Of a stretch of DNA of 47,284 nt, positions 36,001-39,000 are shown piece by piece. How positions within the stretch are numbered: the first letter of the stretch is position 1; the number at the start of each line of letters is the position of its first letter. The stretch is from a virus (Duplodnaviria; Heunggongvirae; Uroviricota; Caudoviricetes): IMG/VR virus record IMGVR_UViG_2718218305_000010. The stretch is one strand, 5' to 3'. Made by a program: the position numbers.

Positions 36001-39000
36001 AAATATGTGCTGCCACGACGTCGCCAGTAGGTGTTCACCGTCGGCGGGTAAAGCAAAACAAACTCTATACGCATCAGTAACCTCTTTTACCCGAGCACGC
36101 CGGTTGCAAAGGCGTGATCAAGAAAACGAAAAATTAAATCAACCTGGGAACCATGCTTTTCTTCGAACGCCAGCGGATCCGCATGAAGCTCGTTGTGATG
36201 CTCCCGACACAGCGGTAGCGTGAAAATATCGTGGGATTTTGTTCCCATTCCGCCCTGACCATGACCAATCAGATGATGAGGATCGTCCGCTGGCTTACCA
36301 CAACACGCACACGGCTGTGTCTTTACCCAGCGTGTGTATTTCTCATTTACCCAGCGGCGACGTTTAGGTCGTTTCCTGAAGGATTCCGGAGACTCCGGAT
36401 CAACGGCAATGCTGACCACCGTCTTTTCCTGTGGTGGGTTCTGTTGCTGGTGGGTGTGAGACGGTAGCGCAATATTTTTTGTGCGCTGCTTCAGTATGCT
36501 GGTGGCGGTCTGTTCTCCCGGTATGATGTCGCTTTCACGGTATACGGAGCGGATTTTTTCCGCACGCAACCCCAGCGAACGACGTAATACCGCTTCCGGT
36601 AGCGCGTCCGCCACCTGATTGCGGACCGCCCACCAGGATAATTCAGCCAGAGATAATTCACGCTCCTGTGCGCCATTCATTGCGTGACGGATGATGTCAA
36701 TCATCCAGGCGGCCAGATTCTGTTGAGCAAGTTGATCCAGTGAATCAGATGTCTGCTCCCGCAGCTGGTTGTCGCAGTGCCAGCACAACACCATCGCGCC
36801 GGTACCGTAACGGTGAATGACGGTTTCGCTATGATGATAATCACCGTGTAGCCACTGGCAGGATTTCACGTGACGTAATAACCAGTCAGACAGTGCACCA
36901 GCGCCACCCGCAGCACGGATCACCCGCTCATCGCTGAAAAATGGCAGTAGTGATTTATCTTCCGCCAGCGGCTGGTGAACGGCAGGTACAACCCCGGACG
37001 GCAGAGCTCGCATGCTTTTTGGTTCCGGCTCCACCAGTATTCTGCCGTTATGGAATGCTGACATTGATTCACGGCCTGGCTTAACGATAACCAGACCGAG
37101 TTCCGGTACCAGAACAGGTCGAAGTAATACCCGCACATTACCTCCAGATCCGTTGCTGGAATGTGCGGGACGGACGCGGTGGCCGTTCGGAGTAAGGGAG
37201 CCTGACGGAGATTATCCAGTGACGGTAGTCGAGGCTAAGGGCTTTTTTAACCTCGCATCCGCGCCTGCGGTAACACTGAATGAGCCATTCGGCCTGTTCT
37301 TCAGTGCATGGGGGATGCTGGTACCAGTCAGATTTGAATGCGTGAAAACACCGTCCGCGCCTGCTGGCAAAGACGGCAGAATCATCAGAATTGTATAATT
37401 TGGTATCGTGCGCCATCGGTTGTCTCTGCTGGCGCAGCAGGTGCCAGTTGTTCAGGCTGGCGTGCGAATTGTAAACCAGAATGCCAGGAAAAAACAAAAC
37501 CCGCCGAAGCGGGTTAAGTGCGGGTGCGTTGAGGATGCCTGATTCATCAGAGGTGGCGAGGGATTTCTCCCTCGCCGGGTCTCTTACTCCTCAGGTTCGT
37601 AAGCTGTGAAGACAGCGACCTCCGTCTGGCCGGTTCGGATTCGTACCTCGCAGAGGTCTTTCCTCGTTACCAGTGCCGTCACTATGACGGTGATACAGAT
37701 GACGATCAGGGCGATTAACATCGCCTTTTGCTGCTTCATAGCCTGCTTCTCCTTGCCTTTCGGCGCGTAAGAGGCTAACCTACATGTGTCTAGCATGAAA
37801 TTGGCCTCAGATTAATGTTAGGCGTCTTGCAGGACGCGTAATGTTAACTGGGGCTTTTCTCTGTCTACCTTACGGTGGCATGCCCGAGGCAGACAGCCTC
37901 AAGCACCCGCAGCAATTCTACTTAACTCTCGCTTTACCGCAAACCGTTTTTACCCGATATGGGAATTCCCATATCGTAATGAATTCAGTTCCCTAGTCGA
38001 TCCATCAAAAACACAACCAGGCAGTAAACGCCCACAACAGCAATAACAGCCAGCGCACCTTCCATTGCCAGTGAAATATCATCCGACATATTCCCTCCTT
38101 TGGTGTGAATCCCGGCGAACGTTTTTACCCCCACCGACAAATAACATATACTAAAAAATCAATAGCTATAGCAACGCCTGTAATTGCAAAGGCTTCAGGC
38201 CAGATCATTGGCGCACCTCCTGCGGCGGTTCTGGTAGCGGCATCCAGTCGGTTACATTGCGGCTCTGTGTTTCGAAAAATTCATCACCATTACGGACTAC
38301 ATCAAAAAACTCACCGTCTCGATATTGCGCATAAAGAACGAATGCGCCATCACATAAAATAATTACGTGCTGACCATCATCCGGCATTCGCTCACTACAG
38401 CTTATCCAACCATCCGGAGTTACCGGATAGTTGGTTGACGTTTCCGAGATTTCCCGAAAATTATTGGTTGACGAACCCTTATTTTCCCGAAAGTTTCCAG
38501 CCTGAAGCATGGCGGCGCGGTGACACCAGATAATCCAGCCAAGCGCCATATCCCATACCATGTAATCTCTATCGCCATTTTTTGCTCTGCGGCGATCTAC
38601 AGATTCTCCGAAACGCTTCTCCATAAATAATTCATAGGCTGCTCGTTCATCCGATACTGCTGCCAGTGATGCCAGCGCAATCCGTGCCAGCTCTTCCGCT
38701 TCTTCTGCTGGAAGCACAACGTTGCTACCCGGTCCGTATGTTTCGCGCCAATGCTGGATTGTCAGCAGTCGATCTTTGGTAATAGTGGTCATAGCTATTT
38801 CACCTTAATCTCAACATTTCGCAGCTTTAGCTCTACTGGCATGTCTGACTTTCCTGTTAATGCTAATGCGAGATTTTCTGGAGTAATGAGAGCAGTTATT
38901 GTTTTCCCCATCGCCAGACGAATAATCATTCGTATTTCGCGATCGTCACATGCTCCTGGTCGAACAATTGATATTTGTCCGTTCATCTCACTCTCCTTTG

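Follow-up and report, generated by a model that had tools for sequence, protein, structure and literature searches.

The nearest studied relative of the hok locus considered here is hokW-sokW of Sakai prophage 5, a Stx2 phage (Takada et al. 2021, PMC8621323), which likewise belongs to a lambdoid prophage and occupies the same genomic position. For this pair, which is 90% identical to ours, killing or arrest by Hok has been shown to be countered by Sok, Hok acts on prophage induction, and sokW is silenced by mutating its -10 hexamer, TAACCT, the same hexamer as in our locus (PMC8621323). The switch in which hok mRNA refolds from a tac/fbi to a tac/ucb pairing was described for plasmid R1 (PMC9841398), whose Hok is only about 44% identical to the clade of the present toxin (PMC8621323). 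On the E. coli K-12 chromosome, the hokC/mokC/sokC (gef) locus has the same promoter and tac element as ours, an in-frame mok (with 57 extra nucleotides) and an antisense Sok at the mok start, and is preceded by AT-rich non-coding DNA without a small ORF. K-12 hokD (relF, Qin prophage) specifies a toxin with 50 of 51 residues identical to ours and retains the same 3' UTR with fbi and terminator, but homology to ours sets in just 15 nt ahead of the hok ATG; relBE has taken the place of the promoter, tac, mok start and sok. The K-12 chromosomal hok loci are reported inactive in work cited in the matched passages of a survey of Hok (bioRxiv 10.1101/2025.08.07.668861).

The locus lies in a 47,284-nt stretch of DNA from a tailed virus (the window, meaning the whole stretch analysed). 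Chromosomes of E. coli O157:H7 such as NZ_CP033605 match the region at 100% identity, and its counterpart in strain Sakai is the lambdoid prophage Sp6. Both hok and a 34-aa ORF are carried on the minus strand. To judge from its sequence, the hok/mok/sok locus of this O157:H7 lambdoid prophage is complete, and it is already annotated. We think it likely that there are two separate entities here: a predicted complete hok/mok/sok locus and an ordinary, translated gene for a 34-aa membrane peptide that stands outside the Sok circuit.

The hok/mok/sok locus

The elements of the locus are the following.

37584–37739 (including the stop codon), minus strand: hok toxin CDS, 51 aa, HokD type, MKQQKAMLIALIVICITVIVTALVTRKDLCEVRIRTGQTEVAVFTAYEPEE
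37584–37796, minus strand: mok reading frame, 70 aa, in frame with hok and starting 19 codons upstream (ORF list)
37915–37943, minus strand: hok promoter, with -35 TTTGCG (37938–37943), 17-nt spacer and -10 TAGAAT (37915–37920), read from the sequence
about 37488–37908, minus strand: full-length hok mRNA, 5' end at ~37908, from the Rfam match and folds
37897–37908, minus strand: tac element, at the 5' end of the hok mRNA
37850–37855, minus strand: ucb (AGCCCC), in the hok mRNA
37771–37775, minus strand: dcb (GCCUC), in the hok mRNA
37749–37754, minus strand: hok Shine-Dalgarno (SD) sequence AAGGAG, in the hok mRNA
37522–37534, minus strand: fbi element CCUCAACGCACCC, in the 3' part of the hok mRNA
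37498–37515, minus strand: terminator hairpin and U tract (terminator scan)
37753–37860, plus strand: sok gene, with -35 TTGCCT (37753–37758), spacer of 17 and -10 TAACCT (37776–37781)

The toxin matches Pfam PF01848 (E=2.4e-23, 81.9 bits against a cutoff of 22) and PHROG 251, 'MokW-like host killing' (2.8e-33), and the identical protein sequence is named 'type I toxin-antitoxin system toxin HokD' by PGAP. The mok ATG at 37796 has the SD sequence GAGG 8 nt upstream (37805–37808), and the frame is annotated in Sakai as 'MokC' (ECs_1520). This frame is in register with hok at our locus, whereas in R1 mok is offset from hok. The hok promoter is kept in K-12 hokC, in the hokW-type locus and in phage Evi, where the homologous TTGGCG-17-TAGAAT was the sole promoter called in a 1-kb scan.

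At the RNA level, the hok leader model Rfam RF01794 matches 37908–37734 (114 bits, E=2.4e-25). The predicted fold of the full-length mRNA (-174 kcal/mol, z -8.05) pairs tac with fbi and the mok SD with ucb, and the fold predicted without fbi switches to tac/ucb and mok SD/dcb pairing; both conformations are seen in minimum-energy and centroid folds, their basis being sequence conservation and energy without covariation, and they reproduce the full-length and truncated conformations of R1 hok. From the opposite strand, the predicted Sok RNA starts at ~37788 and is ~70 nt long, with a U-tract end near 37860; it is predicted to form a 9-nt single-stranded 5' tail, a long hairpin and the U tract (-32.9 kcal/mol, z -6.2). 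In the mRNA fold predicted without fbi, the 5' tail of Sok is complementary to a CUAG-containing loop over the mok start. The sokW probe sequence (PMC8621323 primers) aligns to the sok region of the window. A preliminary description of this DNA had proposed a Hok-family type I locus, which is borne out by the Pfam, PHROG and Rfam matches and the PGAP name; it had also expected mok-like leader elements and an antisense Sok-type RNA within 37740–37990, and the mok ATG (37796), the predicted Sok (~37788–37860), the hok start (~37908) and the hok promoter, which reaches to 37943, all fall there.

From the observed elements and folds we infer an activity and a trigger for this locus. A weak constitutive promoter would yield a hok mRNA (about 37908 to 37490, minus strand) that is inert, with its 5' tac paired with the 3' fbi and its mok ribosome-binding site masked by ucb. 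Trimming of the 3' end would allow this RNA to refold and expose the loop over the mok start codon, to which plus-strand Sok, made from within the mok start region, would bind so as to turn off mok translation—and, as mok translation is blocked, that of Hok too. Upon a drop in Sok, Hok would insert in the inner membrane. By analogy with hokW-sokW, the copy in the window would be toxic and counteracted by its Sok.

The likeness to hokW-sokW extends to the promoter, the 5' leader, the Sok -10 (TAACCT) and the 3' fbi, all of which are the same or near-identical, and the hokW-type protein of Stx2 converting phage I shares 46 of 51 residues with the window Hok. The two toxins differ at the C-terminus (TAYEPEE in the window, VDYESEK in HokW), and the region of the Sok 5' tail and mok start differs at about 6 of 30 nt, a divergence in this RNA region that may separate the specificities of the hok paralogues. 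Activity has been shown for hokW; for the window copy it is predicted. With respect to K-12 hokD, the downstream neighbors correspond in type, with a DUF968 protein in the window and ydfU at the matching K-12 position, and the window preserves the intact HokD-type form, of which K-12 hokD has lost the leader.

The 34-aa ORF and its cassette

Upstream of the hok promoter, the window contains the following features.

37985–38089, minus strand: gene for a 34-aa single-pass membrane peptide, MSDDISLAMEGALAVIAVVGVYCLVVFLMDRLGN (WP_001278450.1; ECs_5710 = XECs145)
37955–37976: 22-bp perfect palindrome CGATATGGGAATTCCCATATCG, between the stop of the 34-aa ORF and the hok -35
37945–38130: 175-bp cassette of SD, 34-aa ORF and palindrome, bounded by the 11-nt direct repeat CGTTTTTACCC
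38125–38208, minus strand: 27-aa hydrophobic ORF MIWPEAFAITGVAIAIDFLVYVICRWG, its ATG overlapping the stop of a DUF551 gene (ATGA)

The ATG of the 34-aa ORF lies 4 nt behind the SD sequence AAGGAGG (38094–38100), and its stop is 245 nt from the hok ATG. Its best 19-residue hydropathy window scores 2.72, which fits one transmembrane helix, and the peptide has a net charge of -3; RefSeq annotates it as a hypothetical protein. The ORF exists in two diverged forms, type A of 34 aa and type B of 29 aa, both of which keep a GGAGG-like SD 4–5 nt before the start, despite the start codon having moved. Comparisons of its versions gave dN/dS values of 0.15, 0.24 and 0.34 in its own frame, as against 0.4–3.5 out of frame, and 19 of the 30 distinct mutations are synonymous (binomial P=2e-5). 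The ratio of synonymous to nonsynonymous counts is 7:3 for type A, 12:8 for type B and, in the comparison with a variant lacking hok, 8:3. None of 189 occurrences, gathered by a pattern requiring the conserved C-terminus and stop codon, is frameshifted or interrupted, and one variant has a TAA stop in place of TGA.

Published RIBOseq data for Sakai give XECs145 an RPKM of 346, a ribosome coverage value (RCV) of 4.35 and a coverage of 0.99 in growing, uninduced lysogens in LB, where reads may be common to the two Sakai copies or come from a minority of spontaneously induced cells; the same study predicts it to be an inner-membrane protein with one helix (PMC5597208). Literature searches for the identifiers or string of the peptide gave no match in main texts and one in the supplements of that paper, and the matched passages of the Hok survey (bioRxiv 10.1101/2025.08.07.668861) do not mention a small ORF upstream of hok. 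Sequence searches of Pfam, PHROGs, NCBIfam, PADLOC and PDB gave nothing meaningful for either the 34-aa or the 27-aa peptide, and an exhaustive phmmer search of 1.84 billion representatives recovered only seven near-identical 34-aa proteins. An origin of the ORF as a degenerate Hok duplicate was rejected, there being no HOK_GEF match and no nucleotide similarity by eye.

The two copies of the direct repeat (37945–37955 and 38120–38130) are the only ones in the 47 kb by pattern search, against 0.02 expected, and alignment with Stx2 converting phage I shows a single clean 175-bp indel at these 11-nt repeats. The cassette is placed between the 27-aa peptide gene and the hok promoter; in the hokW-type locus examined the cassette is absent, and the 27-aa ORF therefore abuts the hok promoter. 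The palindrome, which is single-copy in the window (0 expected), was found at 1075 sites, spread over 626 of 5426 complete E. coli genomes and always at this locus, and is not present in the type B loci or the hokW-type locus examined. It was rejected both as an intrinsic terminator, as no U tract follows it, and as a dispersed repeat or multi-copy operator, as it occurs only at this locus and its half-sites are unenriched in the window. The 27-aa ORF is unannotated in the identical RefSeq record and belongs to a family of the form M.WPEA...VY.ICRW, with 16 distinct nucleotide versions in which many of the differences are synonymous and the ATGA overlap is always kept.

Distribution and rival readings of the 34-aa gene

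About 12% of complete E. coli genomes carry the 34-aa ORF, frequently twice. A scan of one genome per species found five ORF loci, in Escherichia ruysiae, in Shigella flexneri and on three short metagenome-assembled contigs; the latter, labeled as other genera, are taken to be mis-binned E. coli prophage DNA, and the ORF is confined to Escherichia/Shigella prophages. The hok leader follows it at a fixed distance, the ORF lying 210–247 nt before the hok ATG, in 179 of the 181 fetched occurrences with enough downstream sequence (contig-end cases left out), counts that are not independent events because the loci are many near-identical prophage copies. The ORF and hok lie together within mosaic boundaries, and the two have moved as a unit, since the mosaic joint of phage HannyBb is only ~30 bp upstream of the ORF. 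This position before the hok promoter could reflect a hidden functional tie or, alternatively, only short distance and shared ancestry.

A functionless frame, by chance or in decay, carried along with hok would be hard to reconcile with frame-specific purifying selection, a strong SD kept in both forms, ribosome footprints over nearly the whole ORF (coverage 0.99) and the lack of frameshifted or interrupted copies among the 189 pattern-collected occurrences; even with no homologue outside Escherichia/Shigella prophages, no family match beyond the seven near-identical representatives and the loss of the ORF from many loci without obvious consequence, we regard such a frame as very improbable. 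The 34-aa ORF is a genuine, conserved, translated gene. The preliminary description had singled it out as a hydrophobic ORF with a near-perfect SD about 250 bp upstream of hok, and these points are upheld; the selection and the published RIBOseq signal show it to be conserved and translated. Its further suggestion of a second small toxin has fared worse. An RCV of 4.35 in growing cells is the opposite of type I toxin behavior, a net charge of -3 sets the peptide apart from the usually cationic membrane toxins, and toxin and defence libraries yield no matches. A second type I toxin would have to be held by an unrecognised antisense or trans-acting RNA; a weak promoter-like TTGCCA-16-CATATT does occur on the opposite strand (38065–38092), but such sites are within chance (2 found against 1.0 ± 1.0 expected) and this one is not conserved in type B, and simple consensus scans, which a weak promoter could escape, detected no promoter or terminator opposite the ORF that was above chance or conserved between types A and B. 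Furthermore, the centroid fold of the window's own leader, which is of type A, leaves the SD free of pairing, and neither leader is more stably folded than shuffled sequences (z -0.5 for A, -0.3 for B). The peptide is indeed short, very hydrophobic and single-pass, adjoins a known type I toxin, and resembles many peptides that are toxic if overproduced. As in the comparison set ZorO, DinQ, TisB, Ibs and Ldr, it is shorter than 60 aa with one hydrophobic helix, and its gene sits on a mobile element next to a type I locus, but it shows no sequence similarity to them, and the ORF has neither an antisense gene nor an occluding mRNA structure; the peptide also differs from the small type I toxins in its acidic, not basic, character and in being translated without stress. 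With no antisense promoter, structured leader or homologue, and with translation in uninduced cells, the second-toxin idea is unsupported, and we give it very little credence.

A different role, as a third component of phage hok modules, either a partner or modulator of Hok or a source of read-through tuning hok on induction, draws on the fixed spacing in 179 of 181 occurrences and the joint movement with hok seen in HannyBb. No terminator was found in the gap that separates the ORF from the hok promoter. In other HokD- or hokW-type loci, the same position is taken by other small hydrophobic ORFs, one kind of 27 aa and one of 59 aa with two helices. More broadly, the HokD/HokW loci of phages could be clusters of membrane peptides (27-aa, 34-aa and Hok) in which the 34-aa peptide works alongside Hok or upon it at the inner membrane, or in which its translation governs read-through into the hok leader, though we rate this, too, as improbable. 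The hokW-sokW pair is fully functional in constructs beginning in the hok leader (PMC8621323), and the hokW-type phage examined is without the 34-aa ORF. Only about one-third of the sampled HokD-type loci carry the ORF; about two-thirds are without it, three of them keeping just a 6-codon remnant, and it is intact without hok in 11 genomes, where an IbrB-like module replaces hok. A gap of 35–80 bp and common descent can explain the linkage, and we regard a third component as unlikely. We favor the reading of two separate entities, in which the 34-aa gene would be an efficiently translated small gene of the rightward (nin-region) transcription unit of the prophage, physically linked to hok and outside the Sok-controlled circuit; our best guess is that its product serves as an accessory prophage membrane peptide. 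No promoter for the gene was found, and its transcripts would read through into the hok leader, there being no terminator in between.

Significance for hok in prophages

The hok/sok part adds little in itself: the system is a textbook one, and this copy is an intact paralogue that is already annotated. Its main use is as a record of the form from which the truncated K-12 hokD descends, and as one of the several O157 hok copies that differ in their Sok recognition regions. The 34-aa gene is modestly interesting as a selected and translated micro-protein that is nearly always found right before the hok promoter. Were the phage loci membrane-peptide clusters, the 34-aa peptide might make Hok act later, at a particular site or more strongly when the prophage is induced, or its translation could govern early-operon read-through into the hok leader; either could account for a so far unexplained observation on hokW, the reported disappearance of Sok and burst of Hok upon induction. 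Should the 34-aa peptide prove to modulate Hok or the timing of lysis, a system regarded as controlled by RNA alone would gain a protein component, with consequences for the view of how induction of a prophage turns hok on.

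The hok/mok/sok locus and its prophage

The window represents a lambdoid prophage of E. coli O157:H7. Its region 37400-38300 is 100% identical to many O157:H7 chromosomes and has its counterpart in prophage Sp6 of strain Sakai. All genes of this part of the prophage are carried by the minus strand.

Features of the hok region, in the order of transcription
upstream of DUF551, minus strand: replication genes, then several DUF genes
38792-38205, minus: DUF551 gene
38208-38125, minus: 27-aa ORF
38089-37985, minus: 34-aa ORF
37955-37976: 22-bp perfect palindrome CGATATGGGAATTCCCATATCG, 12 bp upstream of the hok -35 box
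37943-37488, minus: hok locus
37943-37915, minus: hok promoter TTTGCG-17-TAGAAT, read from sequence
near 37908, minus: hok transcript start, read from sequence
37796, minus: ATG of the mok frame, GAGG upstream, in frame with hok
37753-37781, plus: Sok promoter TTGCCT-17-TAACCT, read from sequence
37515-37498, minus: terminator after hok, from a terminator scan
downstream of hok, minus: hypothetical gene, DUF968, RusA remnant, then lysis genes

The preliminary description had placed a Hok toxin gene and an upstream 34-aa hydrophobic ORF at 37584-38089. It is accurate: these limits coincide exactly with the hok stop codon and the start codon of the ORF, the toxin matches PF01848 (E=2.4e-23), and the near-perfect Shine-Dalgarno (SD) sequence and spacing of about 250 bp correspond to an AAGGAGG 4 nt before the ORF's ATG and a hok ATG 245 nt downstream. 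The anticipated mok-like leader and antisense Sok elements are all readable in the sequence, making the hok/mok/sok locus complete. A full-length match to the Rfam model RF01794 ('sok antitoxin') spans 37908-37734 (114 bits); as this match lies on the hok-mRNA (sense) strand with its 3' limit at the hok AUG, it marks the hok leader and not the orientation of Sok, whose actual gene is on the opposite strand. The in-frame mok is arranged exactly as in the annotated mokC/hokC pair of K-12, and a homologue of the hok promoter is the sole promoter called by the scanner in phage Evi. The TAACCT hexamer of the Sok promoter is the one mutated by Takada et al. to silence sokW, and their sokW probe aligns with 37788-37818 (PMC8621323).

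In fold predictions, the Sok RNA (37788-37860) forms a long hairpin that is preceded by a free 5' tail of 9 nt and followed by a U tract (z -6.2), and the full-length hok mRNA of 415 nt reaches -174 kcal/mol (z -8.05). In the latter, the first 12 nt (GGGUGCUUGAGG) pair with CCUCAACGCACCC near the 3' end, and AGCCCC pairs with the mok SD. Without the 3' element the predicted minimum-energy fold switches: AGCCCC now pairs with the 5' end, the downstream GCCUC pairs with the mok SD, and the mok start is covered by a 7-nt loop, CUAGACA, with complementarity to the 5' tail of Sok. The CUAG in this loop agrees with the YUNR motif of loops targeted by Sok. The same switch, from tac/fbi to tac/ucb plus SD/dcb pairing, is described for hok/sok of plasmid R1 (PMC9841398).

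The closest experimentally studied relative is hokW-sokW of Sakai prophage 5, a working type I pair whose Hok is made on prophage induction, with phage release raised (PMC8621323). We infer that the window's hok/sok copy is active. The toxin of K-12 hokD is identical to the window's Hok at 50/51 residues, but homology begins only 15 nt before the ATG; as the promoter, leader, mok start and sok lost there are intact here, the window represents the intact form of hokD. In two IMG/VR prophage contigs with an intact small ORF, foreign DNA is found just 5' of the hok SD/start, in the leader (L073, ~3340), or at the very start codon of hok (L248, ~2320), which looks like the recurrent inactivation by insertions known for K-12 hok loci. 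The Hok Tyr47 codon, UAC followed by G (37598-37601, minus strand), sits in a CUUACGAA context resembling the TadA A-to-I editing motif. Such editing changes Tyr to Cys in hokB, and there are reports of it for hokC, hokD and hokE as well, as cited in bioRxiv 10.1101/2025.08.07.668861; if edited, the Tyr47 codon would yield a second cysteine.

At ~34544-36074, by PGAP annotation of the identical NZ_CP033605 region, a RusA-family gene without its C-terminus and an adjacent DUF6645 gene without its N-terminus form fused pseudogenes. These suggest that the stretch from hok to the lysis genes has suffered a deletion, and hence that the prophage may be defective. Further Rfam matches in the window are an ALIL pseudoknot (13581-13697, 121 bits), which as an IS3-family frameshift element indicates an IS copy at that place, the P22-type antisense sar RNA (10397-10463, 66.7 bits) and the prophage-associated sRNA STnc100 (33944-34110, 101.6 bits).

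Coding status of the small ORFs

Existing annotation lists the product of the 34-aa ORF as a hypothetical protein (WP_001278450.1; in Sakai, ECs_5710). Two diverged forms of the ORF exist: type A, the 34-aa, ATG-initiated version of the window, and type B, of 29 aa from a conserved GTG (e.g. MLVLKCALAIAAVMAIYCLAVVLMDRLSD), which many prophages share with the phages Evi, Tritos, HannyBb and mEp460. The two are 44-50% identical and share a hydrophobic core and a C-terminal YCL..(V/F/L)LM(D/E)(R/H)L motif; each has retained a GGAGG-like SD at 4-5 nt from its start codon, with the start position shifted by five codons. In the ORF frame, comparisons within type A, within type B and between the two give dN/dS values of 0.15, 0.24 and 0.34, against 0.4-3.5 in the other two frames. 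The synonymous bias is confined to the ORF frame, with 19/30 distinct mutations synonymous (binomial P=2e-5), and a more distant type A variant has 8 synonymous and 3 conservative differences.

Hücker et al. 2017 list XECs145, predicted to be an inner-membrane protein with one transmembrane helix, among the RIBOseq-supported novel genes of Sakai (PMC5597208). This is the 34-aa ORF: once a shift of 144 nt between versions of the genome is allowed for, its stop coordinate is that of ECs_5710. In LB at 37 °C they give an RNA RPKM of 79, a footprint RPKM of 346, a ribosome coverage value of 4.35 and a coverage of 0.99; the corresponding values are 121, 150, 1.14 and 0.84 in the BHI control and 73, 1.1, 0.01 and 0.37 under BHI stress (PMC5597208). 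The SD kept in both forms, the frame-specific synonymous bias and the RIBOseq listing together identify the 34-aa ORF as a real gene, both conserved and translated; the refuting condition that the preliminary description had set for it, absence of conservation or of translation, does not apply.

The unannotated 27-aa hydrophobic ORF (MIWPEAFAITGVAIAIDFLVYVICRWG, 38125-38208) overlaps the DUF551 stop codon with its ATG, as ATGA. Its family (M.WPEA...VY.ICRW) comprises 16 distinct nucleotide versions, with many of the differences synonymous, and stop-start coupling to the upstream gene is always present. In one allele, present at 10 loci, a premature stop ends the frame two codons short.

Linkage of the small ORF to hok and mosaic exchange

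The fetched loci gave 189 occurrences of the small ORF, of which 8 are truncated by the end of a contig. A hok start codon follows at a fixed distance in 174 of the 181 with enough downstream sequence, at 210-212 nt for type B and 243-255 nt for type A (two loci aside, 245-247); with five further occurrences in which the hok leader has an insertion or its start is variant, a hok leader follows in 179/181. Among 5426 complete E. coli genomes, about 626-653 carry the type A arrangement, the median copy number being two.

The converse linkage fails: only 25 of 76 HokD-type loci, picked by Hok similarity, have the small ORF. Directly before the hok promoter, several of the 76 have the 27-aa ORF, several have a two-helix ORF of 59 aa, and three have the paa gene; another feature, in 3/76, is a 6-codon remnant of the small ORF with nothing more of it. 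In a subset of the HokD-type loci L093-L172, about nine in number, the ORF before the promoter is of about 59 aa with two hydrophobic stretches (MKNALQFLFVAFWLF...MAVMCIEYWR). Unrelated small membrane ORFs are recurrent directly upstream of the hok promoter in HokD-type loci. No ORF was found upstream of K-12 hokC, and the hokW-type locus of Stx2 converting phage I is without the 34-aa ORF; in this hokW-type locus the 27-aa ORF precedes the start of the hok transcript by 42 nt. In a hok-less lineage (11/5426 complete genomes and 3 IMG/VR contigs; L330 1501-2600, L329, L336-L338), an oppositely oriented IbrB-like/IbrA-like pair replaces hok/sok from within the hok -10 box; a promoter stub stays, together with the 27-aa ORF, an intact 34-aa ORF (variant ...VIVVVGVYCLVVLLMDRLGS) and the palindrome. 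In Shigella flexneri CP182557 (L008, ~3000-3120) the type B ORF is kept and the hok locus gone, with homology stopping 15 nt past the type B stop codon.

Mosaic breakpoints lie on the right just past the hok terminator (37490-37496) and on the left at 38248 or 38521 in type A and ~30 bp before the small ORF in HannyBb; since they enclose both, the small ORF and hok constitute one exchange unit. The small ORFs of types A and B have diverged strongly (pS 0.56), but their hok parts are ~92-96% identical, with the break at the hok promoter, so recombination has taken place between the two. Alignment of the window with Stx2 converting phage I shows one clean 175-bp indel containing the SD, the 34-aa ORF and the palindrome, flanked by the 11-nt direct repeat CGTTTTTACCC (37945-37955 and 38120-38130; exactly 2 copies in the 47-kb window vs 0.02 expected). 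The indel may be an insertion; a deletion between the direct repeats in the hokW lineage is favoured, because types A and B both adjoin the hok promoter.

The palindrome is followed by no U tract and has no further copies or enriched half-sites within the window; in the 5426 complete E. coli genomes all its occurrences, 1075 places in 626 genomes, are at this locus. It may serve as a protein-binding site, RNA hairpin or insulator. PPompW-type phages keep it, with the paa gene in place of the ORF.

Role of the small ORF

The possibility that the 34-aa ORF encodes a second small toxin found no support beyond its size and hydrophobicity. On the strand opposite the small ORF, promoter- and terminator-like sites are at chance level and none is common to types A and B; neither form shows a stable fold in its 5' region (z -0.5 for type A, -0.3 for type B), and the centroid fold of the type A leader in the window leaves the SD unpaired. 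The peptide is acidic (net charge -3), and its ORF is translated efficiently in growing, uninduced cultures (PMC5597208). Family, defence-system and structure searches gave no match; an exhaustive phmmer search recovered 7 representatives, all at least 79% identical, and a species-level scan 5 loci with the ORF, neither revealing relatives beyond near-identical Escherichia/Shigella copies. The gap before the type A ORF is only 35 nt, so it must share its transcript with DUF551 and the 27-aa ORF; with no terminator between the small ORF and hok, transcripts of the small ORF should also run into the hok leader. A functional tie of the peptide to Hok appears unlikely, and a cryptic toxin more improbable still. 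Most probably, the rightward operon of the prophage simply encodes, in this ORF, an ordinary small protein of the inner membrane.

Of the preliminary reading, the hok/mok/sok locus and the reality of the ORF hold, and the second toxin lacks support. The locus is an unstudied member of a very well known kind, with hok and the 34-aa ORF already in public annotation. The small-ORF family in two forms, its near-exclusive placement before hok promoters, the direct-repeat-flanked cassette with its palindrome and the companion 27-aa ORF family appear to be unreported so far.
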